64,000 nt of DNA, from contig JAHZMC010000021.1 of assembly GCA_022599515.1 (NCBI GenBank), forward strand, positions 8,708 to 72,707, read 5' to 3'. The stretch is from Betaproteobacteria bacterium. GTDB lineage: Bacteria; Pseudomonadota; Gammaproteobacteria; Burkholderiales; Methylophilaceae. Below are positions 17,267 through 56,982 of this stretch, one piece after another (position 1 is the first letter of the stretch; each line of letters opens with the position of its first letter). A program made the translations under genes and the position numbers. Below the pieces are notes generated by a model. That model ran no database searches. It worked only from the letters and a program-made list of their open reading frames with translations, and was not told where the DNA came from.

Positions 17267-17408
17267 GGGTCGTATTCTTAAAAAATAAGCTGGTTATTGT
17301 GAATAGATTGCATTAAATTCGTGAAGTCAGTATTTTAACCCAATAAGCCTTTACACTAAAATTATCTATACAACGTCTATAACAACCTAATATAACAAAT
17401 CCATAACC

Positions 17409-35510: not shown

Positions 35511-38198
35511 CTAAAACTTTAATATGCCTTTGAGTTTTTCTTTTGCTTTGTCTTCAACTGTTTCTGGTTTTTCAGCGGGTGCTGCTTCTGTTGTTGCACC
35601 TTCAGCCGCTGGTTCGGTCGCAGCTGCATCTGACGCCGTATCTGCAGGTTTTTTCTTACCGAGTAAACCTTTAATCGCATCTATTTTGTTGTCGCCGCCA
35701 ATAAGCTCTTGTACGGCAGCACCCTTTTCGCCGCCTACTTTTTCTAATAATTTAGATTTAGCTAGGCCTGTCACAATGGCTTGGGTGTCTAGTCCAAATT
35801 TTGGATCAGCGAAGGTACCTGATATTTTTAATGGAATACTGATGCCAGCCAGCTCATCTAAATTTTCACCACCTTGGCCTTTTATCGATTTGACGATGGT
35901 TGGCGCGGCTGTGTAATTCAGGGTTTGGTTACCAATATTAATATCGCCAAAGCTATCGCCTTTTGCTAAGCGTAGGATAGGTGCTTTCATGTTTAAATCT
36001 TCGTTGTGGGCGATGCCATTTTTAATAGTAAAGCTAGCATTCAGCTCACTAAAGTCTGTTTTTTGCTTTTCGTCAGAAGCGGTTTCTACCGCTTTGCCTT
36101 TTAGCAAATTGACCTTACTTTTAATATCGCGAATTTTCCCCGCAATATCAATGCCTTTCAGTGCGCCATCAGCTAATGCGAGTGAAGAGGTGCCCGCTAA
36201 GTTTTTTTTAAACGTATTAACCTTATTACCTTGCGTTGCAATATCAATATTAACCGTGCCAGTTCCAGACAGCATGTCGTTATTAATAGTGTCTTGTAAT
36301 AATTGGCCAACAGCCACACTGCTCATGCTTTGTTTAAAGGCAATGTTAGGTGTTGCGCGGGCATCTACATTGAGCGAGCCTTGCATATTGCCGCCATATA
36401 AGCTGGCAGAAAATGGCGCTAGTGTTGCTACGCCACCATCAGCTTTTAGGTCTATGCGTACGTTTTGCAATTTTGTTTGACCATAACTGAGTTTGCCTAT
36501 GCGTAGCGAGCCATTCGCGTTTAACGCTTTTAATGCGCTTAAATCAATCACTTCATCGCCTGTGGTTTTTGTGTCTGAAGTTTCTTCTGCATTCACATAA
36601 TCATTCAAATCAAGCTCATTAATATCAAGGTCGAATGTGTATAACGGCTTAGCAAATTGACTGACGCTTAGTGCGCCTTTGATTTGGCTGTCATTTAATT
36701 TAACGTTTAAACCATTAATCGCCACTTTTTTACCATCTGCTTTAACGCCAAGATTCAACCCTGAGATTTGGTGTTTGTCATACAGAATGCTATTGATATT
36801 CACTTTACCGTCTAGTAGTAAGGTATTAAGCGCTGTCAGATCCGCTGGCTCTTTAGAAGCAGATTCGCTAGCAGCTTTTGGAGGGCCCAATAATTTATTA
36901 AGGTCTAACTTATCTGCATTCAAGTTGAATTTAATATTCGGCTGTTTAAAGCTAGCAACCGCAACATCGCCATTGAGTTTAGTGTCTTCTAACACAATAT
37001 TAAACTTGCTGTTAGCCAACTCTTTTTTAATATCGGCATGCGAACTTAAATTGAATGTGCCTTTAACTGTGCCATTCGGTAAGCTAGGGTTTTTAATATC
37101 GAGCTTGCCAACCAGTTTTGGAATATCAAAGATTAATGCTTCGATATTGCCTTTAAATGGTGAAGAGAATTCACCCTTCACAGTGCGTTTACCTTGCACC
37201 ATTGATAAATCACCTGTGATGCCGCTACTTTGAATCGCTTTAGGCGAGCCTTCCATATTGGCTAACACCATATTCACTTTTAAATCGCCGTCAGTTTTGG
37301 TTTGCGCAAGGTTGATAGTGATTTGTTTACTATTAACCTTGTCTTTTGCAATATTGACAGCTGGTGCGCTTAAATTAACCGCTTCTTTTACGCCTTTAAA
37401 ATCGCCAGAAGCAGCCAGTTTTAGATCATTAATTAAAAATTCCATGCTTTCTGTTTGCGCATCAATATCACCAGTGGCGGTAATATCAACATCTTTGCCA
37501 TCAAGCATTTCGCCTTGCATACTGCCATCTAAGCCTTTCACAACAAAGCGTTTATTGTCAGGATCGTATAAGAAATTACCTTTAATCGCAGTATTAGCAG
37601 CAATGGCAGGCTGATTCGCTTGAATCATGAAGTTAGTGTCTAAATCAACCGGCTCACCTAGTGCAATATGGCTCGAGCTTAAATTAAATTGACTGATGTT
37701 ATAGGTAGCTTCGTTTGCCTCATCAGCATAATTCACTTCCGAATTCGTGACATTAATGCCCTGCACATTAAATTCAATTTCTGATGATTCAGATTCATCT
37801 TTGCTTAAGAAATCATCGTAGTTGGTTGTGCCATCCTTATATTTCACAATATTGGCTTTAGCGCCATCAATGTAAATAGTGTCAACTACCAGTGATTTTT
37901 TAAGTAAGGGCATAACCGCAAGCGCAACTTTAGCGCTGTTGATAGAAGCAAATTGGTTGTTCGAGGCATGTTCAGAAATAGCCACTTTGCCTAAATCTGC
38001 GCCCAATTTTGGCCAAAAAGACAAGCTAATATCACCATCAATGGTTAAATCGCGGTCATATTTTTCTTTAACAAGTTGGATGACTTGCGGTTTATAGTCA
38101 TTCGGATTAAAGGTCGCCGCAAAGTAAGCCATCACCAGTGATGTTAAAAGAATAATGCCACCAAGCACCAAGGCAGTTATTTTTAAATACTTTTTCAT
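35511..38198 (-). CDS. AsmA family outer-membrane biogenesis protein
   Basis: 895 aa with an N-terminal TM anchor, a long beta-rich repetitive body and an AsmA-type C-terminal region. Its stop lies 1 nt from the mutY start. Confidence 0.85.
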   Translation of the reverse strand: MKKYLKITALVLGGIILLTSLVMAYFAATFNPNDYKPQVIQLVKEKYDRDLTIDGDISLSFWPKLGADLGKVAISEHASNNQFASINSAKVALAVMPLLKKSLVVDTIYIDGAKANIVKYKDGTTNYDDFLSKDESESSEIEFNVQGINVTNSEVNYADEANEATYNISQFNLSSSHIALGEPVDLDTNFMIQANQPAIAANTAIKGNFLYDPDNKRFVVKGLDGSMQGEMLDGKDVDITATGDIDAQTESMEFLINDLKLAASGDFKGVKEAVNLSAPAVNIAKDKVNSKQITINLAQTKTDGDLKVNMVLANMEGSPKAIQSSGITGDLSMVQGKRTVKGEFSSPFKGNIEALIFDIPKLVGKLDIKNPSLPNGTVKGTFNLSSHADIKKELANSKFNIVLEDTKLNGDVAVASFKQPNIKFNLNADKLDLNKLLGPPKAASESASKEPADLTALNTLLLDGKVNINSILYDKHQISGLNLGVKADGKKVAINGLNVKLNDSQIKGALSVSQFAKPLYTFDLDINELDLNDYVNAEETSDTKTTGDEVIDLSALKALNANGSLRIGKLSYGQTKLQNVRIDLKADGGVATLAPFSASLYGGNMQGSLNVDARATPNIAFKQSMSSVAVGQLLQDTINNDMLSGTGTVNIDIATQGNKVNTFKKNLAGTSSLALADGALKGIDIAGKIRDIKSKVNLLKGKAVETASDEKQKTDFSELNASFTIKNGIAHNEDLNMKAPILRLAKGDSFGDINIGNQTLNYTAAPTIVKSIKGQGGENLDELAGISIPLKISGTFADPKFGLDTQAIVTGLAKSKLLEKVGGEKGAAVQELIGGDNKIDAIKGLLGKKKPADTASDAAATEPAAEGATTEAAPAEKPETVEDKAKEKLKGILKF

Positions 38199-38263: not shown

Positions 38264-39061
38264 TTACCAGTAATAAAAGAGCACCAACGCACCAAATGCA
38301 ATACGATACCATGCAAATATGGTGAAATCATGACTGGCGATATAGCGTAGTAATACTTTAATCACGATAAGAGCCGCGATAAATGCAGTGATAAAACCAA
38401 TCGCAAAAATTAGAAAATCATCAGCGGCCAGTAAATCTCTGCTTTTATATAAATCGAAAATAGTTGCGGCAAACATTACAGGAATGGCTAAAAAGAACGA
38501 AAACTCAGTAGCGGCCGTTCGAGATAAGCCAAACACCATGCCACCGATAATGGTTGAGGCAGCTCTAGATGCGCCCGGGATTAATGCAATCGCTTGCGCA
38601 AAGCCCACTTTTATTGCCTGCTTCCAGTCCATGTCATCTACAGAATGAACAGTCACTTTAGGCAATTTTTTCTCTACCCATAAAATAATAAAACCACCAA
38701 TAATCAGCGCAATCGCAACCGATTTTGGATTGAATAATAAGGCTTTAATTTGCTCGTGAAACGCTAAGCCGATAATGGCTAATGGCAAAAAAGCGATGAA
38801 TAGATTAATCACTAATTGCCGAGATTTTTGTTCATTCAAATGCGTGGTGACATGCATGACTTTGGTACGATATTGCCATACCACTGCCAAAATCGCGCCT
38901 AATTGAATCACAATTTCAAACACATCACGTTTTTCTTTACTCAAAAAGTTGAGAATATCACCACTGATGATGAGATGGCCGGTGCTGCTGACGGGTAAGA
39001 ATTCTGTAGCGCCTTCGACGATACCCATGATGATGGTTTTGAGAATTAACAGTAAATCCAT
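38264..39061 (-). CDS. uppP: Undecaprenyl-diphosphate phosphatase
   Basis: BacA/UppP signatures (GIVEGATEFLPVSSTGHL, PGASRAAST). The start is set at the ATG at 39061, because the longer ORF start at 39118 lies inside the yidB terminator hairpin. Confidence 0.9.
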   Translation of the reverse strand: MDLLLILKTIIMGIVEGATEFLPVSSTGHLIISGDILNFLSKEKRDVFEIVIQLGAILAVVWQYRTKVMHVTTHLNEQKSRQLVINLFIAFLPLAIIGLAFHEQIKALLFNPKSVAIALIIGGFIILWVEKKLPKVTVHSVDDMDWKQAIKVGFAQAIALIPGASRAASTIIGGMVFGLSRTAATEFSFFLAIPVMFAATIFDLYKSRDLLAADDFLIFAIGFITAFIAALIVIKVLLRYIASHDFTIFAWYRIAFGALVLFYYW

Positions 39062-39104
39062 GATTGTTCTAAAAGTGATTTCTATTTGATAGTGACGGAC
39101 GATT

Positions 39105-39140
39105 AAAAATGCAGACATTAAGTACTCGTCTGCATTTTTT
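39105..39140 (-). terminator. Rho-independent terminator after the yidB-like gene
   Basis: aaaaATGCAGACattaagtactcGTCTGCATttttt. Confidence 0.75.
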
Positions 39141-40998: not shown

Positions 40999-41487
40999 TT
41001 ACGCTAATAAACTGACTTTTACATCAACATGCATGGTGGCTTTATTTGATGGCAATCCCAAAAAACTCCCTGCAACTGGTGGGACAGCTTCAGGATTGCG
41101 GGCGACGGCAGTCGCAATATGTTTGCTACTGGTCACTTCTCCTGAGGTCGGGTCAAAGCCTTTCCAGCCAGTGCCAGGTAGATACACTTCTACCCAAGCA
41201 TGGGTGCTAGCATGGCCTTGCTCTGTCGCAGGCGCAACATCAATCTCATCAGCCGTTAAAATATCCGCAGAGGTCCGTATCGAAAATTCACCAGCAGGCG
41301 CAATTAAACGCTGACATAAATTACCATAATTGTCGGTATATTCCACCGCATGAATGCTGCTTGGTTTAAGTGTGTAAGACTCGCGCGCAATCCATTGCTG
41401 CAGGCCGCTACGTGGACGCAACATCAGTGTAAACGGTGTTTCGACGCTCACATCAAAAGTAATATCACAACCAGTACGAAGCCACAC
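40999..41487 (-). pseudogene. Transglutaminase-like protein lacking the catalytic Cys core (in-frame internal deletion)
   Basis: At 162 aa it is far shorter than the roughly 270-290 aa I recall for this family. It keeps an N-terminal Bact_transglu_N-like part (..DNYGNLCQR..) and the C-terminal His/Asp part (HAWVEVYLPGTGWKGFDPT). The segment that normally carries the nucleophile Cys (G.C.DF-type) is missing. Confidence 0.5.
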
Positions 41488-41622: not shown

Positions 41623-43092
41623 TTATTTACCGTCACGCATTTTCTTAAACCAATATTCTAATTGTTTGCCAGCAGCTTCACGACCACCAAGGCCAAATGC
41701 TAGGGCAACGGCTACAGCAACTGAACCAAGGGTTAAGCCAAATGCCATGTTGACGATGTCATCTGCAATGCCCATTGCGCGTAGGCCCATTGCGACCACA
41801 AGGCCGACGATGGCAATGCGGGCGATATTGGCTAGGCCTGTTGATTTTTCGCCGCTTGCACGATCAATTGCATGGTAAGCAAGGTTGGCTAACCAGAAGC
41901 CAATGACTAGAATGACTGAGCCGAGTAGGATATCGCCACCAAACTGAATGAAGATGCTGACAATGTCGCTGACTTCTGAGAAGCCTAAACGATTGGCTGC
42001 TTCCACAGTGGCAAATAACATGGCAAAGAAAATGACGATTTTTCCAACAATGTCAGCGATTGTTGATTTTTTGTTAAATGTTTTTGCATAGCCTAGTTTC
42101 TCAGGCAGCTCGTTAAAACCGATGCTGGTGAGTAGATTGACAATCAGTGCGGCAACAAATTTAGCCACATAATAGGTGATGGTTAATATAACCGCTGCCG
42201 CTAAGATATTGGGCACCGCTTCAAACATCATGGAGAGCATATTGCTGGCTGGCTGAGAAACAGCACTCATTTGTAACGCATCTAAAGCGGCGATTAACGT
42301 TGGAATAAACACAAAGATAAACACCAACATACCAACAACGTTAGATAGTTTAATGGCGTTTTTACCATCCATATCCACTGCTTTTGAAACATTATCAATA
42401 CCGCTGGTTGCTAAAATATTGGTGACTAAACCGCGTAAAATTTTAGCAACAATCCAACCGACAAGTGCGATTACACCACCAGCAAAGATATTAGGAATCA
42501 TGACTAGAAATTCATCTACCATGCCTTGCACGGGTGCTAGTAAGCCGTTGAGTTCGAAGGTGGAAAGTAACGCAGGTAAGAACATTAAAATAATGATCCA
42601 AAACAGCATATTACCAACATTATTGCTCATTGGTTGCATGCCAGCTGCAGCGCTTAGTTTTTCGTCTAACTTGGTCGTTGCTAGTGCTTTAGTGACTATC
42701 AGTCTGACTAAAGTTGCAATTCCCCAAGCAATGGCTAGCAAAATTAATCCCGCAAAAATACGTGGTAAATATTCAAATATTTGCGTCACCATGACATTAA
42801 AAGGTTCAGAAACTGCTTGTAAATTTAAGCTACTAAATACGCCAATTAAAGTAATCAGTAGGATTAGAATAAAAGCGCCAAACGAGATGCCAGAAGCAAT
42901 ATCAACTTCTTGCCCCGTGCTTTCAGAGATTCTTTTGTTAATGCCTATCATGTTTAAAAAGCGGTTTAAGCCAGCGCGAACGAGTACAGCAATCAGCCAA
43001 CCACCTATCAACACAGCAAGCGCTCCAAAAATACCTGGTAGATGTTGACCCAATTGACCCTGCAAACTGTTCACAAGTGTAGAAAAGTCCAT
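41623..43092 (-). CDS. Conserved TM-helix-repeat (CmpX-like, mechanosensitive-channel-related) inner-membrane protein
   Basis: 489-aa polytopic protein made of repeated helix pairs of the type (..GGWIVAKILRGLVTNIL..GID..). Confidence 0.7.
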   Translation of the reverse strand: MDFSTLVNSLQGQLGQHLPGIFGALAVLIGGWLIAVLVRAGLNRFLNMIGINKRISESTGQEVDIASGISFGAFILILLITLIGVFSSLNLQAVSEPFNVMVTQIFEYLPRIFAGLILLAIAWGIATLVRLIVTKALATTKLDEKLSAAAGMQPMSNNVGNMLFWIIILMFLPALLSTFELNGLLAPVQGMVDEFLVMIPNIFAGGVIALVGWIVAKILRGLVTNILATSGIDNVSKAVDMDGKNAIKLSNVVGMLVFIFVFIPTLIAALDALQMSAVSQPASNMLSMMFEAVPNILAAAVILTITYYVAKFVAALIVNLLTSIGFNELPEKLGYAKTFNKKSTIADIVGKIVIFFAMLFATVEAANRLGFSEVSDIVSIFIQFGGDILLGSVILVIGFWLANLAYHAIDRASGEKSTGLANIARIAIVGLVVAMGLRAMGIADDIVNMAFGLTLGSVAVAVALAFGLGGREAAGKQLEYWFKKMRDGK

Positions 43093-43262
43093 TTGAAGTC
43101 CTCCTGAATTTTTATGAAATTGCAGATTCAGTTTACAACTAATTTCAGATAATACAAGGGAAAGGGGACAGTTAGCTGGGATTGGAGGCTAACGGTATCG
43201 TGGATATAAAGCGTAATTTAGGGGAGTATTCCCCTAAATTTTCTTAATGAGTTAGAAGTAAA

Positions 43263-43406
43263 TTATGTTCTCCATGGATGTTGTGGTAAATCACATTCAC
43301 CACATTTAGTCGCGCCAGCTACCGCAACGATATGGTCATTTTCAACCGTATCGCCACTCACACCAACAGCGCCAATCAGCATGCCAATCTGAAAAATCCA
43401 ACTATT
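43263..43406 (-). pseudogene. Remnant of a GlcG/DUF336 (heme-binding) gene, C-terminal end only
   Basis: The minus-strand translation ...[37 protein letters not shown]...* matches the conserved GlcG C-terminus ([11 protein letters not shown]...D..VA.A). A stop codon lies immediately upstream and there is no N-terminal part. Confidence 0.55.
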
Positions 43407-43438
43407 TCAATGACTTACTATTATCTTAGAAAACAAGC

Positions 43439-43495
43439 ATGCATTTTTTGCATGAAATGAAAGAAAGCATAATGGGTTCTATGCAAAATTTGCAG
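43439..43495. promoter_or_regulatory. Paired TGCA-N5-TGCA boxes (candidate enhancer/UAS) upstream of the cptA-like gene
   Basis: ATGCATTTTTTGCAT (43439-43453) and ATGCAAAATTTGCAG (43481-43495), 27 nt apart. They match the two boxes at 45461-45518 at 13/15 and 14/15 positions. Confidence 0.45.
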
Positions 43496-43595
43496 TTTTA
43501 TGTTGTTTATTACTCGCTTCGATTATTAAAATTAAAACAAGAATAACAATACGAATCAGTAATTTAGCTTGATTTAATTAATCGTTTACTAAACA

Positions 43596-43611
43596 TGGTA
43601 TTATCATTGCT
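43596..43611 (+). promoter_or_regulatory. Candidate sigma-54 (-24/-12) promoter of the cptA-like gene
   Basis: TGGTATtatcaTTGCT has GG-N10-GC spacing with TTGCT at -12. It lies 36 nt before the ATG at 43647, 101 nt downstream of the box pair, and is separated from it by an AT-rich tract. Confidence 0.5.
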
Positions 43612-43646
43612 CATAGCATTGGACAATTCAATCAATAAGCCATGAC

Positions 43647-45401
43647 ATGCAAACAATCAAGAAACTATTTAACAAGTCACTTTTTAGCAAGCTAGCAATT
43701 AACCCATCATCGTTAATGTCGTTTTTACTCTTTTGGTATCTCACCAGTATCACGCAATTGCTCATTAGTTTATCGGGTGCTGCCTCGTTTGAAGGCTTTA
43801 AAGATGCCACCATTACGGCATTTTTATGGATGATTCCTGTGCTGTTATTTCCGCAGCAGGTAAAAAGAATTACCGCAAGTTTAGGCATTATGCTTTGGCT
43901 ATTTGCGTTGCCTGGCTTTGGTTATTACCTTATTTATCATCAAGAATTAACGCAAAGTTTGATGTTTATTATTTTCGAATCTAATCAATCCGAATCAACC
44001 GAATATTTACAAAATTATTTGTCCATTGGGATTGTTTTAAGCTATATCGCGTTTACCTTAGTGCCTCTTTATATTTGGACAACAATAAAGCCTTATGAAA
44101 GCACAAGAAAACCAGCCAATATCACCAGCTTCATTTTAATAACACTTATTTTTATGACGCCTGTGAAACGTGCAATTCAATATGGTGACATTAATGCAGC
44201 TTATAAAAATTTAAATCGCCATTTGTCAGCGGCGCCGCCATGGCAACTTGGATTTGGCTACAGCAATTATCAGCGAGAGTTAAAAGAAGTCGAAGCACAA
44301 CTGCTCAATTTAAACAAAATTCCAGCGCTCAAAAATTTTACAGAAACGAAAAAAGAACTGCCGACAACAGTTGTGCTGGTGATTGGTGAATCGACGACGC
44401 GCGTACACATGGGCTTGTACGGCTATGGCCGAGACACGACGCCAAAACTTTCTAGCATGAAAGATGAATTAATGGTTTTTGACAATGTATTTGCATCCAG
44501 ACCAAATACGATTGAGAGTTTGGAGCAAGTGCTCACTTTCGCCAATCAAGCCCAGCCTGATTTATATAAAACCACGCCTTCTTTAATCGCCATGATGAAG
44601 CAAGCGGGTTATAAAACCTATTGGATTACCAATCAGCAAACGCTCACACAACGTAATACTATGCTCACCACGTTTGCCAAGCAAGCAGATGAACAGGTGT
44701 TTTTGAATCATGGGCGCCGTCAAAATTCTTATAGTTTTGATGCCAAAGTATTGGCACCATTTGCCGAGAAATTGCTTAAACAAGATGAAAAGAAACTCAT
44801 CATCGTCCATTTGCTCGGTACCCATATGAAGTACGCCTATCGATATCCAGCGGACTACAACTTTTTTAATAATGCAGAAGGTATACCTGAAGTCATTTCT
44901 GCCGATTCTGACAAAGTGACACTGGTGAATGAGTATGATAATGCCGTTCGTTATAACGATTACATTGTGCACGCACTGATTCAACAATTGAAACAATCAA
45001 CTGCAAGTGCTACACAGAGCTTATTGGTTTATTTTTCTGATCATGGAGAAGATGTCTATGACTCGGCGCCACACGCATTTAAAGGGCGCAATGAAGGCGC
45101 GCCAACCTACCCCATGTATGCCGTGCCATTTATCGTATGGCATTCGCCAAACTGGCAAAACGCGCAACAGCTAGCGGATTCTGCAATCCGTCACCGCCAG
45201 TATGATAATGCTGATTTTATTTACACGTGGTCAGATTTAATTGGGCTGACCTACGATGGTTATCGCGCAGATGAAAGTCTTATCAATAACGCATTTGGCG
45301 AAGATACCATCCTAGTAGGCGATCCTTATCATGGCAATTTGCACGTGCTCGATGGCACGATTAAACCAGTGAATCTGCCAGTGAATACGCAGAAAAACTA
45401 G
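43647..45401 (+). CDS. cptA: Phosphoethanolamine transferase, CptA/EptC type (LPS core heptose)
   Basis: Similar along its length to E. coli CptA as I recall it (..VLVIGESTTR..LYGY.R.TTP..., MKQAGYKTYWITNQQT, LIIVHLLGTHMKYAYRYP, YFSDHGE). It has an N-terminal TM domain and a sulfatase-fold domain. Confidence 0.85.
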   Translation: MQTIKKLFNKSLFSKLAINPSSLMSFLLFWYLTSITQLLISLSGAASFEGFKDATITAFLWMIPVLLFPQQVKRITASLGIMLWLFALPGFGYYLIYHQELTQSLMFIIFESNQSESTEYLQNYLSIGIVLSYIAFTLVPLYIWTTIKPYESTRKPANITSFILITLIFMTPVKRAIQYGDINAAYKNLNRHLSAAPPWQLGFGYSNYQRELKEVEAQLLNLNKIPALKNFTETKKELPTTVVLVIGESTTRVHMGLYGYGRDTTPKLSSMKDELMVFDNVFASRPNTIESLEQVLTFANQAQPDLYKTTPSLIAMMKQAGYKTYWITNQQTLTQRNTMLTTFAKQADEQVFLNHGRRQNSYSFDAKVLAPFAEKLLKQDEKKLIIVHLLGTHMKYAYRYPADYNFFNNAEGIPEVISADSDKVTLVNEYDNAVRYNDYIVHALIQQLKQSTASATQSLLVYFSDHGEDVYDSAPHAFKGRNEGAPTYPMYAVPFIVWHSPNWQNAQQLADSAIRHRQYDNADFIYTWSDLIGLTYDGYRADESLINNAFGEDTILVGDPYHGNLHVLDGTIKPVNLPVNTQKN

Positions 45402-45458
45402 CTTTAACCAAAACGCTAGCTAGGCCTATCGTCACGCCCATTCAGTAGCAACGTTAAC

Positions 45459-45520
45459 GCCTGCATTATTTGCATTACCTATAGCATTAGTCTCAATGGA
45501 TGCATGCAAAAGTTGCAGGC
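45459..45520. promoter_or_regulatory. Paired TGCA-N5-TGCA boxes (candidate enhancer/UAS) upstream of the methyltransferase-PAP2-eptA operon
   Basis: GCCTGCAttaTTTGCAT (45459-45475) and ATGCAAAagtTGCAGGC (45504-45520) form a 17-nt imperfect inverted pair (14/17), 28 nt apart. Confidence 0.5.
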
Positions 45521-45604
45521 TTCAATCCTATTTCACTATGCTTTAATTTTATTAAAGTCAAAATAAACAATAGGTTAAAAGATATTTTATTCAATTATTA
45601 CAGT

Positions 45605-45620
45605 TGGCATGCCGCTTGCT
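45605..45620 (+). promoter_or_regulatory. Candidate sigma-54 (-24/-12) promoter of the methyltransferase-PAP2-eptA operon
   Basis: TGGCATgccgcTTGCT is near-identical to the TGGCAC-N5-TTGCW consensus. It lies 40 nt before the ATG at 45660, with AAGGGA as the RBS. Confidence 0.65.
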
Positions 45621-45659
45621 CAATAGCCTTAGTCAGTGAACAAACACTAAGGGAAATAA

Positions 45660-46355
45660 ATGTTTAACCATGCAGGTAAAGCAGAACCGCAAGCCGAAGC
45701 AACATTAGCTTTCTCTAACAAATACGACCAACAACATGCGCAACAATATTTTGAAAAACATGATGATGGTATTTGGCGCAAACTATCCAATTGGCGCGAT
45801 CAGCAAATTGCTAGAAAAGCACTCAAAATAGCGGGCAATCCAAAATCGGTACTTGATACACCCTGCGGCACAGGTCGCTTTTGGGGTGTGCTTGCGGAAA
45901 ATAACAATAGAATTATTCACGCTAGTGATTACAAACAAACCATGATTGATGTTGGCGTGCTTAATCGTCCGCAATCAATCACTAAACGAATCAAACATTT
46001 TCAAGCCTCGGCGTTTGAATTGCCAGTGCCAGATCAATTTGTAGACAGTATTTTTTGCATGCGCTTCATACACCATTTGGGCGAATCTGCAGACAGAGTA
46101 AGGTTGCTAAAAGAGTTTCACCGCGTAACAAAAGAAACAGTGATTATTTCACTTTGGGTTGATGGCAATATCAAAGCAAAAAGAAGGTTGGCACTTGATC
46201 AAAAACGTCCTCCAAAAACGTATCAAAATCGCTTCGTTATTCCAGCTAAAACAATTGAAGAGGAGTTTAGAGCAAACGGATTTACAGTTATTGAAAAGCT
46301 TGATTTTTTAAAGCATTACCATATGTGGCGCACTTATGTAGTGCGTAAAGTCTAA
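45660..46355 (+). CDS. Class I SAM-dependent methyltransferase
   Basis: Motif I VLDTPCGTGRF with downstream motifs. 231 aa and soluble. Confidence 0.8.
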   Translation: MFNHAGKAEPQAEATLAFSNKYDQQHAQQYFEKHDDGIWRKLSNWRDQQIARKALKIAGNPKSVLDTPCGTGRFWGVLAENNNRIIHASDYKQTMIDVGVLNRPQSITKRIKHFQASAFELPVPDQFVDSIFCMRFIHHLGESADRVRLLKEFHRVTKETVIISLWVDGNIKAKRRLALDQKRPPKTYQNRFVIPAKTIEEEFRANGFTVIEKLDFLKHYHMWRTYVVRKV

Positions 46356-46373
46356 AACAGGTATAGTAATAAC

Positions 46374-47069
46374 ATGTTTTCTTTTAAAACGCTCAGAACA
46401 GCACTTTTTGTATTGTTATTCTCAGGTGTATTTTTTGCAGTAATCTCTCAGTTTACCAGCATTGATGTGAACATCGAAGATTACTATTACGACGCTCAGA
46501 AACACCAATTTATTTGGAAAAATAGCTGGTTTGCAAAGCAATTGATGCATACCTATGTCAAAGACGTGATTATCGTATTAGCGCTATTGCTTATCATTGT
46601 TGTAGTGGTCGATATAGGCAAACCAATCAGCAAAATAAGCGCATGGACGCGCATTAGGCTGCGGTTTGTAAGCGTTGCAGCGATTGTTATTCCCTCTTTT
46701 ATCTCTAGCGCAAAACAACTGTCAGTCATGCATTGCCCATGGGATGTTGAGCGCTATGGCGGTGCCGTGCCTTATCTAAGACTATTTGACATGATGCCAG
46801 CGCATATAAAAGCAGGTCATTGCTTTCCCGCAGGACATGCTTCAACAGGCTTGTGGTTGGCGGCATTTTGCGTCTTTTGGTTACCTTACCATCCGCGCAA
46901 GGCATTGCTGGTTTTTTTAGCGGGCTTGGGCGTTGGGTTTGTACTCGGCTGGGTGCAACAAATGCGGGGCGCGCACTTTCTTTCTCACACTTTATGGTCA
47001 GTGTGGATAGCCAGCGCCATTATTCTGCTCATGCTCTGTGTTAGCCAGTCATTCATCAATCGTCATTAA
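46374..47069 (+). CDS. PAP2 superfamily membrane phosphatase (LpxE/PgpB-like)
   Basis: Polytopic protein with PAP2 C2/C3-like motifs (FPAGHAS, MRGAHFLSHTLWS). Adjacent to eptA. Confidence 0.8.
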   Translation: MFSFKTLRTALFVLLFSGVFFAVISQFTSIDVNIEDYYYDAQKHQFIWKNSWFAKQLMHTYVKDVIIVLALLLIIVVVVDIGKPISKISAWTRIRLRFVSVAAIVIPSFISSAKQLSVMHCPWDVERYGGAVPYLRLFDMMPAHIKAGHCFPAGHASTGLWLAAFCVFWLPYHPRKALLVFLAGLGVGFVLGWVQQMRGAHFLSHTLWSVWIASAIILLMLCVSQSFINRH

Positions 47070-47086
47070 TTTTACAGAAACAAGTT

Positions 47087-48730
47087 ATGCTCAATACTCG
47101 CTTTACTAAACTCATCAATTCACAAACAGGCGCTATTTTCTTGGTTGTATTGTTTGTGATGCTTACCGCTAATATGTCGCTCTTTCAGCATATTGTAGAA
47201 ATTTACCCACTCAATCTGCGCAATATCCCGTTTTTAATTTCATTATCTATTTTTTTCAGCTTATTAACGGCTTTGTTTTTCATGGCAATTAGCTTCGGTA
47301 GAAAAGGTCGCTGGCTGATTGCTTTGCTATTAATCATCAGCGCGCAAGCCGCTTATTATATGGATAATTTCGGTGTATTGATGGATAGCGTGATGATAGA
47401 CAATATCATACATACCGACGCTAAAGAGGTGGAAGGTTTAGTGAATGTTGGTATGGTGATGCATCTCTTGTTGCTAGGCGTCTTGCCTGCTTGGTTGGTG
47501 ATTCGATATTGGCCAACAGTGAACAATATCAGTGCTGAGATTAAAACGCGGTTTTTGTGTTTATTGCTATTGATTATTGCACTTGTTGTCGTGGTATTGC
47601 CATTTACGGCGGGTTATACCAGCTTTATCCGTGAACATAAAATCACCCGTTTTTATGCTAATCCTACCTACCCAGTTTATTCATTAATCAAATATGCGCA
47701 ATTACAATTAAAGGACAAACAACAAGCTGACATCACAAAAACGGCAAATGATGCTCAATTTACAGAGGGGAGTATTAAAAATGAATTGGTGATTATGGTT
47801 GTTGGTGAAACCGCGCGAGCGGATAGATTCTCACTCAATGGCTATCACAAAGAGACAAACCCGCGCTTAGCAAAAGAAGATATTGTGAACTTTACCAATG
47901 TGAGTTCATGCGGTACTTCTACTGGCGTTTCAGTTCCGTGTATGTTTTCAGAATTAGGTCGAAAAGACTACGACAAGCAGAAAGCATTAAACCAAGAAAA
48001 TATATTGGATGTGTTAGCGAAAAACGGTATAGAAGTGTTATGGCGTGATAACAATTCAGATTCAAAAGGCGTTGCGACTAGGGTTCAATACGAGGATTTC
48101 AAAACGCCGACTCACAATCCTGTTTGTGAAGGTGAATGCAGAGACATTGGTATGTTGAGTGGGTTGGATGCTTATATAGCTTCTAAAAAAGGCAAAGATA
48201 TCATGATTGTGTTGCATCAAATGGGCAATCATGGCCCTGAATATTATCGCCGCTATCCAAAAGCATTCGCAAAATTTCAACCAATGTGTATGACAGGTGA
48301 ATTAAGAGATTGCACAAAAGAAGAGGTAAATAATAGTTACGATAATGCGATTTTATATACGGATTATTTTTTATCAGAAGTCATTCAATTCTTAAAAAAA
48401 TACGATGACGATTATGAAACGGCGATGTTGTATGTATCTGATCATGGTGAATCGCTAGGTGAAAATGGCGTTTGGTTGCATGCCGCACCTTATATGATGG
48501 CGCCAAAGACGCAAACGCATGTGCCAGCTATTTTGTGGTTAGGACAACACTTTGATTACAACATATCGCAAGCGGAAGTTTATAAAGACGCGCCATTAAG
48601 TCACGATGATTTATTTTGCACCTTACTCATCGCTTATGAGCTGGATGCGAAAACCTGTATTGCAAAAAGAGAGATGCTCATGAATAACTTAGCTATTCAA
48701 GCAGCGTTAACTATTGAGAAAAGGCGATAG
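47087..48730 (+). CDS. eptA: Phosphoethanolamine--lipid A transferase
   Basis: Five N-terminal TM helices and a sulfatase domain with EptA motifs (VVGETARADRFSLNGY, SCGTSTGVSVPCMFS, HQMGNHGPEYYRRYP, VSDHGESLGE). Confidence 0.88.
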   Translation: MLNTRFTKLINSQTGAIFLVVLFVMLTANMSLFQHIVEIYPLNLRNIPFLISLSIFFSLLTALFFMAISFGRKGRWLIALLLIISAQAAYYMDNFGVLMDSVMIDNIIHTDAKEVEGLVNVGMVMHLLLLGVLPAWLVIRYWPTVNNISAEIKTRFLCLLLLIIALVVVVLPFTAGYTSFIREHKITRFYANPTYPVYSLIKYAQLQLKDKQQADITKTANDAQFTEGSIKNELVIMVVGETARADRFSLNGYHKETNPRLAKEDIVNFTNVSSCGTSTGVSVPCMFSELGRKDYDKQKALNQENILDVLAKNGIEVLWRDNNSDSKGVATRVQYEDFKTPTHNPVCEGECRDIGMLSGLDAYIASKKGKDIMIVLHQMGNHGPEYYRRYPKAFAKFQPMCMTGELRDCTKEEVNNSYDNAILYTDYFLSEVIQFLKKYDDDYETAMLYVSDHGESLGENGVWLHAAPYMMAPKTQTHVPAILWLGQHFDYNISQAEVYKDAPLSHDDLFCTLLIAYELDAKTCIAKREMLMNNLAIQAALTIEKRR

Positions 48731-48771: not shown

Positions 48772-49266
48772 TTATTTTTCGCAACTTTGCAGTGACGGTT
48801 TGCTTTTGAGTATCTCGCCACCAGGCATGAGCCAAAATAAGCTTTGAACACGCTCATCCAGATTGCAAGCGTTAACATAACCGATAGCGCCTTTTGTGTT
48901 CGAAACATAGCGCAATACGGCTTCCTCTGAGTTAACAGAATAAGGGGGCAGTATCCCGTTAAAGTATTGACCGTTCCAATAATCAATTTGTGTTTCTGGT
49001 GAGCCACCTAAAACCGCTTCTGAAAATTGTATTCTTACGGCATTTTTCGCATTTAAATTGACGGGTTTAATTTGTATACCTTGCGGCCAAAAAAGTTGCT
49101 TACGCCAATAAATTAAATTTAAATTCTTGGCGCTCAGATTAAGTTCGCTAGCCTTTTGCTGGCTCGAAACAACCACAGCGATAATAGTTTGATTTTCCTT
49201 TGCTAAGGAAAGGCTGGGCAATATCATTGCACTTGCTACAATAAGAAACAAGAAGCGCCTATACAT
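48772..49266 (-). CDS. Small periplasmic PBP-like (PstS-type half-domain) protein
   Basis: Signal peptide and a PBP-like pattern (LNLIYWRKQLFWPQGIQIKPV..., GAIGYV). Its start overlaps the stop of the upstream barrel gene (TAATG). Confidence 0.6.
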   Translation of the reverse strand: MYRRFLFLIVASAMILPSLSLAKENQTIIAVVVSSQQKASELNLSAKNLNLIYWRKQLFWPQGIQIKPVNLNAKNAVRIQFSEAVLGGSPETQIDYWNGQYFNGILPPYSVNSEEAVLRYVSNTKGAIGYVNACNLDERVQSLFWLMPGGEILKSKPSLQSCEK

Positions 49267-50264
49267 TAGAAGAACAATGCAAATGAAGTTAAGAAACCAC
49301 GAGGTGATTCAGGCTGATCTCCGCTGCCACCAGTAAACTCAAACTTTAATAGTTGCGTGGGCTTAATGCGCCAAGTGGCGCCAACTAACCAGCGCTCTGC
49401 CGTTGCTTCATCTGGTCGTTGCAGGGTTTCTACACGGGTAATCCAATACCAATTATTAAAGCCGATTGGCTTTAAAGGCACGGCAGATTGTAGATAGGCG
49501 CCGCTACCGCCATCCTTATTTCTTATATCAAAGCGCTGAAAAAATTCACCACTGACTTCTACCTGTTTAATATGAGTAATAAAGTCTAAGCCAAGCATGC
49601 GGTAACTATTATCAATGCCCTTTTCGCGGAATGATAATATCGAGATGCCAATATCCGATTGATTTTTATAGCTAAATCTGGCCCCTTTTACATGCTCAAA
49701 GGCTAATTCATCTCCATCTTGCTGTTGGTCTTCTAACAATTCAGCAAAGATTTTGTATTCAAATGCACCATTCATAAATGGGGTTGCACCAAAAACCATG
49801 ACACCATTAGTGCCTTCTGGGAAAAGTCTAGAAGTGGCTAATGGACGTGTGCTGGTCCAAACGAGTGGAGGTGCGTGTAAAAGATTCCAGCGGCTATTTG
49901 GGGTTAAAAATCGTCCACCGCGAAAATTGACTTTTTCTGTGATGTTGTAATCTAAGTAAAGCCGCTCTAAATCAAAACGAGATTCCTGGTCGTGAAATTG
50001 CCGCTCATCATTCCAAGATAATGGATTTTCAAGTTCCAGTTCACCAAAAAAACTTAAACGACTATCGCCATTCCATGTCACCAGTAAACTGACTTCATTC
50101 AACGCTGCTTGGGCTTCTTGATCTCTTTCTAATGTCAGGCCAGCACTGGAGTAACCGCCGATATTAAACCCATCAAGCCAGCTAGGTGTATCATCAGCAA
50201 ATACGTGCTTGCACAGACAGAGCAGGCTAGCTAAACTGGTGAATATAATGATAAATTTTTTCAT
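49266..50264 (-). CDS. Uncharacterised outer-membrane beta-barrel (porin-like) protein
   Basis: Signal peptide (..CKHVFA/DD), alternating amphipathic strands and a C-terminal aromatic residue (..SFALFF). Confidence 0.6.
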   Translation of the reverse strand: MKKFIIIFTSLASLLCLCKHVFADDTPSWLDGFNIGGYSSAGLTLERDQEAQAALNEVSLLVTWNGDSRLSFFGELELENPLSWNDERQFHDQESRFDLERLYLDYNITEKVNFRGGRFLTPNSRWNLLHAPPLVWTSTRPLATSRLFPEGTNGVMVFGATPFMNGAFEYKIFAELLEDQQQDGDELAFEHVKGARFSYKNQSDIGISILSFREKGIDNSYRMLGLDFITHIKQVEVSGEFFQRFDIRNKDGGSGAYLQSAVPLKPIGFNNWYWITRVETLQRPDEATAERWLVGATWRIKPTQLLKFEFTGGSGDQPESPRGFLTSFALFF

Positions 50265-50364
50265 ATTGATTTCAATTGTTGGATCTTTAACGCTTACTCT
50301 GCGTAATAAGAAGACCGCGTCAAATGGAATTGTCTCATTACATGCTTAATAAAAGAAATAATCA

Positions 50365-52032
50365 ATGTTAAAAAGATTAAGTATTAAGCAATTATTGTTG
50401 CTGGCCTTTTTGTTAGCGGGCTTGCTGCCGGCGATGTTAGTCAGTTTTTTAAGTTTCTATCAAAGCCGTTCTGTTCTCAAGCAAGAAATTACGCGTGATA
50501 TGCAAACATTGAGCACGGCAGTTGCCAATGATATGGAGCGCATGATGTTTGAACGTTTGCGCAATGTGCAATCATGGAGTCAGCTCTCTATTATGCAAGA
50601 GCTCAAAATTGGGGATATTGATAAACGCTTATCTGTTTTTTTGAATGGTTTAGCACAGAGTTACGGCAATATTTACCATGTCATTTATGTTGAAGATTTG
50701 CAACATAGGGTGATTGCCAGCAGTAATGCTAAGAAAATCGGACTACAAAATCAGCCTCAGCCGCCTTGGTTTTCTGCCAGCTTATCTGGCAGGTCATTAA
50801 GTATTGCTAAAATCAACGGCAATGTTTTAGCGATTTCTGCAGAAATTATTGATGAAACGACCAACATTCCTATGGGTCAGCTTGTGGTCGAATTTAACTG
50901 GGATATCGTGCAAAATGCACTGAATAATGTGATCAAAAAACCAACAGCAGCAGCATTGCTAGATACGAATGGCAATGTGTTGGCGGCGACCTCAAATTGG
51001 GCAGAAATTCATTCTGGATATGGTATGTATGCGATTAGTCAATTTAGTCAGCAATCACCAATGCCCCAATGGCGGGTGCAAGTTGAAAAGCTACACTCCA
51101 TAGCAGTCGCGCCTGTACATAAATTGGGCCATATCTTTTTGGGTTTGTTGGCGGCAACTTTGCTATTGGCCGCGTTAATGGTCAGGCCGATTGCACAAGC
51201 TATTACGCAACCAATCTCGCAATTAACCCAATTTGTAAAAGGTTTTGCGCGACAAACAAAGGCGAAACCGCCACAGTCTGGGCCACCAGAAGTACGTGAG
51301 TTAGTCGCTGCTTTTGAAACGATGACAGAAGATTTAGCCAAGTCGCAAGAAAAGCTAACGCGCGCTGCAAAGCTAGCGGTTGTTGGTGAAATGGCTGCGG
51401 CGATGAGTCATGAAGTGCGCACGCCGCTAGGCATATTACGTTCTTCAGCGGATGTATTAAAGCGCGAAAAAACCTTATCTGACGAAGGTAGAGAAGTGCT
51501 GACGTTTATTGGCGCAGAAACAGAGCGGCTCAATAAATTAGTATCTACTTTAATTGATGCGGCGCGTCCGCGTTTGCCTATTTTTTCTCAGCTTAACTTA
51601 ACAGAATTAATCGCCAATACAGTCGCCATGTTGCGGAATCAAGCGCAGGCAAAACAGATTCATCTGACATTTGATCGCCAAACGCCGACGGTAACCGCAG
51701 CGGTTGATGCAGACCAAATGACGCAAGTCATGATGAATTTAATCATGAATGCAATACAAGTGTTGCCAGAAGGCGGACATATTATGATTGTGTTAGAACA
51801 TATCGGTCATCAAGCGGTGATTCGTGTGGAAGATGATGGCGAAGGGATTAGCGAGGAACATCAGGCGCAGATTTTTGAGCCATTTTTTACTAAACGTGCA
51901 GGCGGTGTTGGTTTGGGATTGGCGGTGGTGCGACAAATTGTATTGGCGCATGGCGGTGAAATTCATTATCAAACCAGCCAAATGCATGGCGCGCAGTTTA
52001 CAATTCTCATTCCAATACAACAGGCAAGTTAA
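50365..52032 (+). CDS. Sensor histidine kinase with a periplasmic (Cache-like) domain, HAMP, HisKA and HATPase domains
   Basis: Two TM segments flank a loop of about 230 aa. H-box (MSHEVRTPL) and N/G boxes (NLIMNAIQ, DDGEGI, GGVGLGLAV) are present. Confidence 0.88.
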   Translation: MLKRLSIKQLLLLAFLLAGLLPAMLVSFLSFYQSRSVLKQEITRDMQTLSTAVANDMERMMFERLRNVQSWSQLSIMQELKIGDIDKRLSVFLNGLAQSYGNIYHVIYVEDLQHRVIASSNAKKIGLQNQPQPPWFSASLSGRSLSIAKINGNVLAISAEIIDETTNIPMGQLVVEFNWDIVQNALNNVIKKPTAAALLDTNGNVLAATSNWAEIHSGYGMYAISQFSQQSPMPQWRVQVEKLHSIAVAPVHKLGHIFLGLLAATLLLAALMVRPIAQAITQPISQLTQFVKGFARQTKAKPPQSGPPEVRELVAAFETMTEDLAKSQEKLTRAAKLAVVGEMAAAMSHEVRTPLGILRSSADVLKREKTLSDEGREVLTFIGAETERLNKLVSTLIDAARPRLPIFSQLNLTELIANTVAMLRNQAQAKQIHLTFDRQTPTVTAAVDADQMTQVMMNLIMNAIQVLPEGGHIMIVLEHIGHQAVIRVEDDGEGISEEHQAQIFEPFFTKRAGGVGLGLAVVRQIVLAHGGEIHYQTSQMHGAQFTILIPIQQAS

Positions 52033-52034: not shown

Positions 52035-53393
52035 ATGGACACCCAAAAACGTATTCTCGCAGTTGATGATGAGCCGAATATGCGGCGCTTGCTGGAGATT
52101 AGTTTGCGTCAAGCAGGCTATCAAGCGTTGACCGCCGCCAATGGAAGAGAGGCATTAGAGACCCTCAAAACAGAGCAAGTGGATTTGGTCGTTAGCGATT
52201 TGCACATGCCGGGCATGAGCGGTTTAGAGTTGCTTAAACAAATGCGCGCAGACAGTGATGCCATTCCTTTTATTATGGTAACGGCACAAGGTGAAATTAA
52301 TACCGCAGTTGAGGCGATGAAGTTAGGCGCGGCGGATTATATCTTGCGCCCTTTTGATTTAGAGGTGCTGGAAGTTGCAATTGCCAAAGCTCTAGATATC
52401 CAAAGATTACAGCTTGAAAACACCTATTTAAAATCGACAACGCAACCGATTGTGCAAGGCCTAATTGGCGAAAGTTTAGCGATGCAAACATTGAAGCAAA
52501 TGATCGCACAAGTCGCGCCAGAAAAAGCCACCGTATTAATTGCAGGTGAAACAGGCACAGGTAAAGAGCTTGTTGCAAAAGCCATTCATACCGCCTCGAG
52601 TAGAAAAGACGGTTTATTTGTTGCGGTCAATTGCGCGGCGATACCCGCAGATATGTTGGAATCTGAGTTATTTGGCTATGAAAAAGGCGCTTTCACAGGC
52701 GCAGTTAAAACACGGGTCGGTAAATTTGAATTGGCAGATAAAGGCACACTATTCTTAGATGAAATTACTGAGATGCCTATCCATTTGCAAGCTAAGCTAC
52801 TACGTGCATTGCAAGAAGGTGTAATTGAAAAATTAGGCAGTAATAAACAAATTGCTTTGGATAACCGCATTGTTGCGGCCACCAACCGCGATGCCATGCA
52901 AGCGGTCAAAGATGGTAAGTTGCGAGAAGATTTATATTATCGATTGAATGTATTTCAGTTGAATGTACCCGCCTTAAAAGAACGTACAGGCGATGTGGCT
53001 TTATTAAGTCATTTCTTTTTGGCCAAGCGTGAGGGTGAAGAACGTAGCGCTCAAATAAGTGATGAAGCAATGCAGCAGTTACAACGTTATGATTGGCCTG
53101 GTAATGTGCGTGAGCTAGAAAATGTACTAGAGCGCGCTTCTATATTGTCATCAGGCGGTCAGATTGAAACGCATCATTTGCCGAGTGATATTGTAGGCAA
53201 TACTATCAGCGCAGTAGATAATACGACGCTACAAAATGATTTTTCCATCCCAGCGCAAACACAAAGGCTAGAGAAAAAACTAATCACTGAAGCAATTGAG
53301 CGTTGTAATGGCAATAAAGCAAAAGCAGCCAAATTACTCGAGATTAGTGAACGCTCACTCTGGTATAAGCTAGATCAATACCAACTAAAATAA
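52035..53393 (+). CDS. Sigma-54-dependent response regulator (NtrC-family enhancer-binding protein)
   Basis: REC domain (DDEPNM..D..MPGMSG), an AAA+ domain with GETGTGKE and the GAFTGA loop (EKGAFTGA), and a C-terminal Fis-type HTH. Confidence 0.92.
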   Translation: MDTQKRILAVDDEPNMRRLLEISLRQAGYQALTAANGREALETLKTEQVDLVVSDLHMPGMSGLELLKQMRADSDAIPFIMVTAQGEINTAVEAMKLGAADYILRPFDLEVLEVAIAKALDIQRLQLENTYLKSTTQPIVQGLIGESLAMQTLKQMIAQVAPEKATVLIAGETGTGKELVAKAIHTASSRKDGLFVAVNCAAIPADMLESELFGYEKGAFTGAVKTRVGKFELADKGTLFLDEITEMPIHLQAKLLRALQEGVIEKLGSNKQIALDNRIVAATNRDAMQAVKDGKLREDLYYRLNVFQLNVPALKERTGDVALLSHFFLAKREGEERSAQISDEAMQQLQRYDWPGNVRELENVLERASILSSGGQIETHHLPSDIVGNTISAVDNTTLQNDFSIPAQTQRLEKKLITEAIERCNGNKAKAAKLLEISERSLWYKLDQYQLK

Positions 53394-54255: not shown

Positions 54256-54277
54256 GTGATTGTTTCTAATTAAATTA

Positions 54278-56385: not shown

Positions 56386-56982
56386 TTGAACTGGAAGCTC
56401 ATTCTTTTTATCGCGCTCATTGGCTATGGCGCTTATCAACATTTTAATCAGCGCCCTGTGGTTTATGGTGACGGCGTTGTGGCGAAGCAGCTACCACTCC
56501 AATCGAATACTAACGACGTAAAATTTGAGCATAGCGGCTATACCATTACGCCGTTACAATCCTTTGAAATTGAAGCGCGTATTTTATCGACAAAATATTA
56601 CACGTTTGATCGAGGCGCCGATTTATCACCAGTTGATTTAGCCTTGGGTTGGGGTCGCATGTCAGATGAGGCTGTCTTAAAAAAGATAGAGATTAGTCAA
56701 AGCGGTCGTTTTTATTATTGGCGGGTCAATGAATTTCCGATTCCGCGTAAAGAGATTGAAACCCATAGTGCAAATATGCATTTGGTACCTGCCAATTCAC
56801 AAATAGAAAGCCTATTAAAAAACGTCAAGCCAGGTCAAGTTGTGCGTATTCAAGGCGATTTAATACAAGCAAATGCAGCTGATGGCTGGCACTGGAAAAG
56901 CTCGCTCAGCCGTAATGATATAGGTGCTGGCGCTTGTGAATTAGTCTGGGTTAAAACGTTTAGCGTTAAACCGCTAAGCTAA
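56386..56982 (+). CDS. Membrane-anchored conserved hypothetical protein
   Basis: TTG start with AGGTG 6 nt upstream, an N-terminal TM helix and no recognisable motif. Its stop codon overlaps the convergent waaA stop codon. Confidence 0.55.
   Translation: MNWKLILFIALIGYGAYQHFNQRPVVYGDGVVAKQLPLQSNTNDVKFEHSGYTITPLQSFEIEARILSTKYYTFDRGADLSPVDLALGWGRMSDEAVLKKIEISQSGRFYYWRVNEFPIPRKEIETHSANMHLVPANSQIESLLKNVKPGQVVRIQGDLIQANAADGWHWKSSLSRNDIGAGACELVWVKTFSVKPLS

Follow-up and report, generated by a model that had tools for sequence, protein, structure and literature searches.

We describe here a regulatory region upstream of a gene for a CptA-like phosphoethanolamine transferase (hereafter, cptA) in a 64,000-nucleotide (nt) stretch of DNA from a Methylophilaceae bacterium (GCA_022599515.1, contig JAHZMC010000021.1, positions 8,708-72,707 of the forward strand; the whole stretch is referred to as the window). 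The region holds a pair of 15-base-pair (bp) palindromic boxes with the consensus CTGCA-W5-TGCAG, followed downstream by a GG-N10-GC element, and we consider it likely that these represent the enhancer, or upstream activating sequence (UAS), and the -24/-12 promoter of sigma-54-dependent genes driven by a linked activator, encoded 6.4 kb downstream. The dyad sites lie within the range of ~80-200 bp upstream that is expected of a UAS, and the linked activator carries both GAFTGA and a C-terminal helix-turn-helix (HTH). The elements are as follows, with box scores taken from a weight matrix built from 30 boxes, the window's four included.

43439-43453, no strand assigned: distal box of the cptA promoter, ATGCATTTTTTGCAT, a perfect ATGCA-N5-TGCAT palindrome, 18.8 bits
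43481-43495, no strand assigned: proximal box of the cptA promoter, ATGCAAAATTTGCAG, 22.7 bits
43554-43566, plus strand: candidate site for integration host factor (IHF), AATCAGTAATTTA, one mismatch to WATCAANNNNTTR, read from the sequence
43596-43611, plus strand: sigma-54-type -24/-12 promoter TGGTAT-N5-TTGCT, TGGTATTATCATTGCT, with GG at 43597-43598 and GC at 43609-43610, exactly GG-N10-GC
43647-45401, plus strand: cptA-like phosphoethanolamine transferase gene (584 amino acids), the first target (Pfam Sulfatase; NCBIfam PRK10649.1, 673 bits against a cut-off of 404)

The two boxes are separated by 27 nt, or 42 bp from center to center (four helical turns), with their centers ~176 nt (distal) and ~134 nt (proximal) upstream of a predicted start site near 43622. 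A preliminary description of this DNA had given the same box spacing and the same GG-N10-GC element, and had correctly counted 13/15 and 14/15 matches between these boxes and those of the downstream operon (discussed below); its distance of 101 nt of AT-rich DNA between the second box and the promoter holds when counted to the GG, whereas the T of the TGG is reached after 100 nt, and the promoter ends 35 nt, not 36 nt, before the ATG. The IHF-like site lies between enhancer and promoter, its center ~62 nt upstream of the predicted start, and we treat this assignment as putative because the region is AT-rich. A "terminator-like" hit of the scan on the minus strand (43454-43438) was not taken to indicate that the distal box is a terminator, since the hit consists only of the box's own 6-bp palindrome, which is too short.

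Chance can be ruled out as the explanation of this arrangement, as judged by the matrix scores and by 300 first-order Markov simulations of the window, in which we counted composites, i.e., box pairs 40-45 bp apart with TGG-N9-TGC at most 180 nt after them. Single boxes with at most one mismatch occur at background frequency in the window (9 observed vs. 8.1 expected), whereas the simulations averaged 0.003 box pairs 40-45 bp apart, against two present in the window, and the full composite appeared in none of the 300 simulations vs. two in the window. The four boxes of the window score 18.8-22.7 bits, vs. 14.1 bits for the next best site in the 64 kb. No further targets emerged within the window: the weaker box-like sites (e.g., at 53677, within an open reading frame for a PCMT methyltransferase, and at 18913) are single, score at most 14.1 bits, and lack a promoter. 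When two mismatches are allowed, a third composite is counted in the window, and the two-mismatch "pairs" at 28554 and 51982 were discarded because neither contains a box of at least 9 bits. In a control set of loci, mostly from Pseudomonas (L019-L080, 1.18 Mb in all), seven boxes of at least 14.5 bits were found, all of them single, and no paired boxes.

The conservation of the region among relatives carries most of the independent support. A one-genome-per-species scan with the CptA-like protein as the query placed the window in Methylophilaceae and returned loci L001-L018, with orthologues at 57-85% identity. Over 20 related loci in all retain the boxes, the IHF-like site, and the -24/-12 element amid diverged flanks. 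The distal box is kept upstream of cptA in L002, L003, L004, L007, L015, L017, and L018, and in each of these loci it forms part of a pair, 41-43 bp apart, that is followed by TGGCAC/TGGCAT-N5-TTGCT/G. When eight cptA upstream regions are aligned (alignment A2), the conserved islands are the two boxes, an IHF-consensus-like AATCAR-N4-TTA (a perfect consensus in L017), and the -24/-12 element, while the remaining sequence has diverged. The distance from the center of the proximal box to the GG is similarly maintained, at 108-110 bp in the window, L002, L003, L004, L005, L007, L015, and L017, vs. 142 bp in L018. More distant Methylotenera/Methylophilus loci (L005 and L010-L014) also show TGCA-N5-TGCA pairs and TGGTAT/C-N5-TTGC upstream of cptA, with a center-to-center spacing of 31 or 23 bp. 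The 27-28 nt spacing that the preliminary description had proposed as a search criterion is therefore not a fixed property, and a regulon search limited to the spacing of the window would miss real sites.

Across the window and its relatives we tabulated 27 box-plus-promoter units. GG-N10-GC with TTGC is kept in 27/27 of them, the five bases that separate TGGNNN from TTGC being variable, and all 27 precede operons for lipopolysaccharide (LPS) or envelope modification, of which the kinds are cptA, eptA, PAP2, LtaS-like sulfatases, an ArnT-like PMT/GT2/GtrA set, and a T_hemolysin/AMP-ligase/redox/SDR operon. This constancy bears on whether a sigma-70 promoter might transcribe the gene instead, with a repressor or a classical activator using the palindromes as its operators and the GG-N10-GC being incidental. 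The AT-rich character of the region, in which weak -10-like hexamers are easily found, and the imperfect -24 element TGGTAT would both suit such a scenario, which we nonetheless regard as very improbable given that a consensus scan of 43093-43646 and 45402-45659 returned no plus-strand sigma-70-like promoter, that the GG-N10-GC with TTGC is retained in every unit while the bases in between change, and that boxes 60-142 bp upstream of the promoter have the geometry of an enhancer, not that of an operator. The sigma-54-type assignment of the preliminary description is supported by the scan and by the presence of the element upstream of cptA orthologues, and the GAFTGA-bearing activator implies, only indirectly, that the genome has a sigma-54. 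Rfam gave no match at an expectation value (E) of up to 1 in these intergenic regions, and a structured RNA or riboswitch in the leader or the intergenic DNA was rejected on this basis.

A second copy of the cassette precedes the next operon (45660-48730, plus strand), which encodes a methyltransferase, a PAP2 phosphatase, and an EptA-type transferase:

45461-45475, no strand assigned: distal box of the second promoter, CTGCATTATTTGCAT, 19.7 bits, kept in L001
45504-45518, no strand assigned: proximal box of the second promoter, ATGCAAAAGTTGCAG, 19.2 bits, 43 bp from the distal box
45565-45577, plus strand: putative IHF-like site, AAACAATAGGTTA, one mismatch, likewise a reading of the DNA letters
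45605-45620, plus strand: sigma-54-type promoter TGGCAT-N5-TTGCT, TGGCATGCCGCTTGCT, with GG-N10-GC; predicted start near 45631 and ATG of the operon at 45660
45660-46355, plus strand: class I methyltransferase (Pfam)
46374-47069, plus strand: PAP2 phosphatase similar to lipid A phosphatases (95.7 bits with PAP2_lipid_A, short of the cut-off of 275)
47087-48730, plus strand: EptA-type phosphoethanolamine--lipid A transferase (613.7 bits with NF028537, cut-off 500)

The box centers are here ~163 and ~120 nt upstream of the operon's predicted start, and the IHF-like site lies ~61 nt upstream of it, matching its placement in the cptA promoter; at the positions that correspond to the window's IHF-like site and promoter, L001 has TAACAATGAGTTA and TGGTATGCGGCTTGCTCAATAGCCTTAGTCA, respectively. 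Alignment of the two upstream regions of the window, as proposed in the preliminary description, revealed collinear similarity beyond the boxes (TTATTAAA.T.AAAA.AA at 43523 and 45549), which points to duplication; the bases after the -12 element are alike as well, as had been noted before (TTGCTCATAGCATT vs. TTGCTCAATAGCCTT). Because of this extra similarity, and because the second promoter is present only in the window and the L001 lineage, the second promoter is probably a duplicated cassette, and the two copies are probably not the independent occurrences that they had been taken for, so that independent support comes from the orthologues. The stretches TTATTAAAATTAAAACAA (43523-43540) and TTATTAAAGTCAAAATAA (45549-45566) occupy matching places relative to the boxes, with a 17-nt length difference before the promoter, and could be a trace of the duplication of the cassette or a further protein-binding site.

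It could be argued from the same observations, namely the collinear similarity and the restriction of the second promoter to the window/L001 lineage, that the likeness of the two regions reflects nothing but a recent local duplication of non-functional intergenic DNA. We find this hardly credible: a duplication would explain the second copy and not the first, the cptA cassette is kept in orthologues of 58-84% protein identity where the functional elements alone are preserved, and the same elements precede unrelated operons elsewhere. The argument of the preliminary description for a shared regulator rather than chance is supported, through the pair statistics, the conservation in orthologues with diverged flanks, and the presence of the linked activator.

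That activator belongs to a module of four genes immediately downstream of the eptA operon:

48772-49266, minus strand: p164, an unnamed secreted, half-size PstS-like protein (no family at E up to 0.001; weak PBP_like_2 match)
49266-50264, minus strand: p332, an unnamed secreted protein (no family at E up to 0.001)
50365-52032, plus strand: sensor histidine kinase with HisKA, HATPase, and a weakly dCache-like periplasmic region (Pfam; dCache_1, 35.1 bits, below the cut-off of 45)
52035-53393, plus strand: NtrC-family sigma-54 activator with Response_reg, Sigma54_activat (AAA+ with GAFTGA), and HTH_8 (Fis-type) domains (Pfam and sequence)

The HTH of the regulator, GNKAKAAKLLEISERSLWYKL, is nearly invariant among orthologues while the linkers vary freely, and the TGCA half-sites of the boxes are as invariant as the HTH. 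Over its full length, the protein shares 45% identity with E. coli AtoC; however, we refrain from naming it AtoC, since it scores 473 bits against a cut-off of 714 with the NCBIfam AtoC model, reaches no named equivalog, and finds only generic NtrC-family relatives in the PDB. The kinase reaches no named NCBIfam equivalog either (AtoS, 196 bits vs. a cut-off of 646), and the alignment to the AtoS model covers just the C-terminal transmitter of the kinase (residues 317-553).

For p164, an AlphaFold model (mean predicted local distance difference test score, pLDDT, of 74.5) matched PstS phosphate-binding proteins over about half their length (E of 8e-5, template modeling, TM, score of ~0.5), in agreement with the weak sequence hits, and PF12849 (PBP_like_2) is annotated on some of the listed members of its 357 homologues. 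The sole Pfam match of p332 is not significant (Porin_5, E of 0.066, 12.2 bits vs. a cut-off of 22), and the listed members of its 452 homologues have no specific name and no Pfam family. In the p332 translation, a hydrophobic leader is seen at the N terminus and ...ALFF at the C terminus; an outer-membrane location would be only a guess. The listed homologues of both proteins are unnamed or generically named, and the few with a named source are from Methylotenera or Betaproteobacteria. In the loci examined, p164 and p332 always adjoin the kinase and regulator genes.

The gene order cptA, (methyltransferase and PAP2, optional), eptA, p164, p332, kinase, and regulator is kept in L002, L003, L007, L015, and L018, and L016 has a rearranged version. 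More generally, the kinase, the activator, p164, and p332 adjoin box-bearing operons in L002, L003, L007, L015, L016, L018, L082, and L083, i.e., in every related locus that extends far enough and through rearrangements of order and orientation (L016 vs. the window; L082; L083), and the shorter contigs L009 and L084 contain part of the sensor module only. We take the linked regulator to be the obvious candidate for the protein that binds the boxes because it is the sole activator of this type in the neighborhood examined, travels with the box-bearing operons, has a nearly invariant HTH, and resembles AtoC.

Alternatively, a different activator, encoded elsewhere, might bind the boxes while the neighboring two-component system regulates something else. 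Such an arrangement would fit the Methylotenera mobilis-type loci L010-L014, which have boxes and promoters around cptA and no kinase or activator gene in the fetched sequence (at most 10 kb on each side); it would also fit the 100-bp p332-kinase intergenic region (50264-50365), which has no box and hence no sign of autoregulation, and the fact that AtoC uses TGCA half-sites too, so that several paralogous activators could read similar sites. We consider it unlikely, however, since the module is found beside box-bearing operons, despite the rearrangements, wherever a locus is long enough to show it, the box pair starts directly after p164 in L009 and L016, and no other activator gene of this type is found in the part of the window examined (35.5-58.3 kb).

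Several observations weigh against our preferred assignment of an enhancer read by the linked activator. The linkage is not universal, given the lack of the kinase and activator genes in the sequence fetched around cptA in L010-L014. The spacing of the boxes varies (23, 31, 41-43, and 57 bp), with 23 bp corresponding to a non-integral number of helical turns, and the boxes stand anywhere between 60 and 142 bp from the promoter. The cptA promoter may be weak because its -24 element is TGGTAT rather than the consensus TGGCAC, and the IHF-like matches, with one mismatch each in AT-rich DNA, could be due to chance. Finally, the two copies in the window, which probably arose by duplication, count as one observation.

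If the assignment is correct, the following sequence of events may be envisaged. The kinase, perhaps jointly with the secreted p164 and p332, would sense a signal in the periplasm or the envelope and would phosphorylate the NtrC-family regulator, whose dimers would then bind the two CTGCA-W5-TGCAG palindromes and assemble an active AAA+ ring. An IHF-type bend ~60 nt upstream of the start would loop this ring onto RNA polymerase-sigma-54, waiting as a closed complex at TGGTAT-N5-TTGCT, and ATP hydrolysis would open the promoter so that cptA is transcribed, with the methyltransferase-PAP2-eptA operon presumably driven by the same type of cassette. The expected output would be a remodeling of LPS core and lipid A phosphates, that is, phosphoethanolamine addition combined with dephosphorylation.

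The relatives also indicate a wider set of targets. A four-gene operon encoding a T_hemolysin family protein, an AMP-dependent ligase, a Haem_oxygenas_2-type redox enzyme, and an SDR protein has a box pair and promoter in L002 and L003, and was located at the following positions:

L002, 3772-7443, minus strand: T_hemolysin/AMP-ligase/redox/SDR operon
L016, 5578-9219: the same operon, directly after p164 and with an added TPR-repeat protein
L083, 14234-17874: the same operon, diverging (as also in L084) from a PAP2-eptA operon

This operon may make or modify an envelope lipid, given that it is co-regulated with LPS modifiers. In L082, where p332 is 65% identical, four box sets precede four units beside the sensor module: a sulfatase-PAP2-sulfatase operon, a sulfatase-PAP2-GtrA-GT2-PMT (ArnT-like) operon, and two Metallophos genes, with TGG-N9-TGC found for the two operons only and not for the two Metallophos genes. 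Since the second of these operons extends into GtrA, GT2, and an ArnT-like PMT, the regulon there would include a glycosylation branch. The cassettes of L082 at 4925-5055 and 17391-17524 are near-identical, have boxes 31 bp apart followed by TGGCTTGGTGTTTGC with the unusual -24 element TGGCTT, and stand before paralogous operons that both begin with sulfatase and PAP2.

A second, opposite-strand sigma-54-type promoter flanks the cptA box pair in L002, L003, L004, L007, L015, L017, and L018, and in L002 this minus-strand promoter precedes a gene for a 665-amino-acid LtaS-like protein of the sulfatase family. The window retains a remnant of it:

43380-43386, minus strand: orphan -24 element TGGCATG, aligned to the divergent sigma-54 promoter that is intact in relatives

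Window positions 43380-43495 align to L015 positions 9678-9793, and the segment 43262-43385 (minus strand) is the 3'-terminal remnant of a glcG/HbpS-like gene that aligns to the glcG-like gene of L002, L003, L015, and L018. The remnant is fused directly to the orphan TGGCATG, with ~6.5 kb deleted relative to L015 (3208 to 9678); the segment lost comprises most of glcG, a hexapeptide acetyltransferase gene, the T_hemolysin/AMP-ligase/redox/SDR operon, and the LtaS-like sulfatase gene. Because of the orphan -24 element and this deletion, the cptA box pair of the window would appear to have once been a bidirectional enhancer.

The hairpin AATTTAGGGGAGTATTCCCCTAAATT (43215-43240), a strong palindrome whose plus strand carries T-runs, closely follows the stop of the glcG remnant and is situated upstream of a mechanosensitive-channel-like gene (41623-43092, minus strand); it probably served as the terminator of the former glcG and could work bidirectionally. 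A 231-amino-acid open reading frame at 42353-43048 (plus strand) lies wholly antisense within the channel-like gene, with a similar shadow frame in L002, and is almost certainly not a gene. The frame at 40999-41487 (minus strand, 162 amino acids) has a weak match to Bact_transglu_N, a transglutaminase-like N-terminal region (23.8 bits, below the cut-off), and may be a truncated gene. Envelope genes abound in the neighborhood, and the others among them are without boxes, namely those for an AsmA family protein (35511-38198), BacA/UppP (38264-39118), a TolC-like outer-membrane efflux protein (54260-55813), and the Kdo transferase WaaA (56979-58265, minus strand).

Taking these observations together, we tentatively suggest, at somewhat less than even confidence, that in Methylophilaceae a lineage-restricted, four-part envelope sensor (p332, p164, the kinase, and the AtoC-like activator) commands an LPS-phosphate regulon through CTGCA-W5-TGCAG enhancers. 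The members of this regulon would possibly be, with the same reserve, CptA, EptA, PAP2 phosphatases, LtaS-like transferases, the ArnT-like glycosylation set, and the T_hemolysin/AMP-ligase/redox/SDR lipid operon. The PstS-like nature of p164 hints at phosphate or another oxyanion as the signal, or, also speculatively, at a cation competing for LPS phosphates, unlike the metals sensed by PmrB- and ColS-type kinases. How well cells resist cationic peptides and polymyxins and tolerate metals is determined by the EptA/MCR/CptA family of phosphoethanolamine transferases, and the regulon proposed here would, if real, place LPS charge remodeling under another class of promoter, one with tight off/on behavior, in methylotrophs that are abundant in fresh and marine waters. 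It would also provide a function for the uncharacterized sensor module and, through it, for the uncharacterized four-gene lipid-like operon, and the defined 15-bp motif allows regulon prediction in Methylophilaceae genomes.

Among known systems, the closest parallel is AtoSC-atoDAEB of E. coli. The verified sites of AtoC are GCTATGCAGAAATTTGCACA and an inverted copy, i.e., 20-bp TGCA-N6-TGCA inverted repeats that precede the atoD promoter (PMC3118216). An AT-rich stretch and then TGGCACTCCCCTTGCT (TGGCAC-N5-TTGCT) come after the AtoC sites in E. coli, so that the two systems share the receiver/AAA+/Fis-type HTH layout, the TGCA half-site, and the succession of sites, AT-rich DNA, and -24/-12 element. 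They differ in the spacer of the boxes (5 nt here vs. 6 nt for AtoC), in the distance between boxes (42-43 bp vs. 21 bp), in the targets (LPS modification as opposed to short-chain fatty acid catabolism by atoDAEB), and in the two extra secreted proteins of the module described here, whose kinase has a sensor region that is only weakly dCache_1-like. By analogy, the system would work like AtoSC, but it is not AtoSC.

NtrBC-glnAp2, the textbook sigma-54 enhancer, is similar in having two dyad sites that face one side of the helix, over 100 bp upstream of a GG-N10-GC element, and a phosphorylated response regulator as the activator. NtrC sites are TGCACC-N5-GGTGCA, with their TGCA cores 9 nt apart vs. 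5 nt here, and the targets of that system are in nitrogen assimilation, with NtrB being cytoplasmic. PmrAB, PhoPQ, ColRS, and CarRS/VprAB, for their part, are envelope two-component systems that switch on phosphoethanolamine transferases and other lipid A and core modifications, as proposed here; however, these systems have OmpR/PhoB-type regulators that act at sigma-70 promoters, whereas the regulator linked to the boxes is an AAA+ enhancer-binding protein of the NtrC type, not of the OmpR family (PmrA/ColR-type), and its candidate sites are palindromes far upstream of promoters of the -24/-12 class. In the literature searched, we found no paper describing the control of eptA or cptA by sigma-54 or an enhancer-binding protein, and the eptA/cptA regulators named in the papers found were of the PmrAB, PhoPQ, ColRS, and CarRS/VprAB types only. 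A paper on StkSR of Acinetobacter was not accepted as a precedent, since RpoN and NtrC are mentioned there only in passing, and a survey of sigma-54 and the cell exterior has no mention of phosphoethanolamine or lipid A. The case described here would, if confirmed, be the first sigma-54-dependent control of lipid A/core phosphoethanolamine transferases.

The composition of the sensor module finally recalls the regulation of arsenite oxidase by AioXSR, which likewise combines a periplasmic substrate-binding-type protein with a histidine kinase and a sigma-54 activator, although p164 is PstS-like and reaches only about half the size of such a protein, and the targets are unrelated. The design of the cis elements (tandem dyads, an IHF-like bend, and a -24/-12 promoter) is the textbook arrangement of the NtrC family, the part without a report in the literature searched being its connection to LPS targets; consequently, what would be gained is a new regulon rather than a new mechanism.

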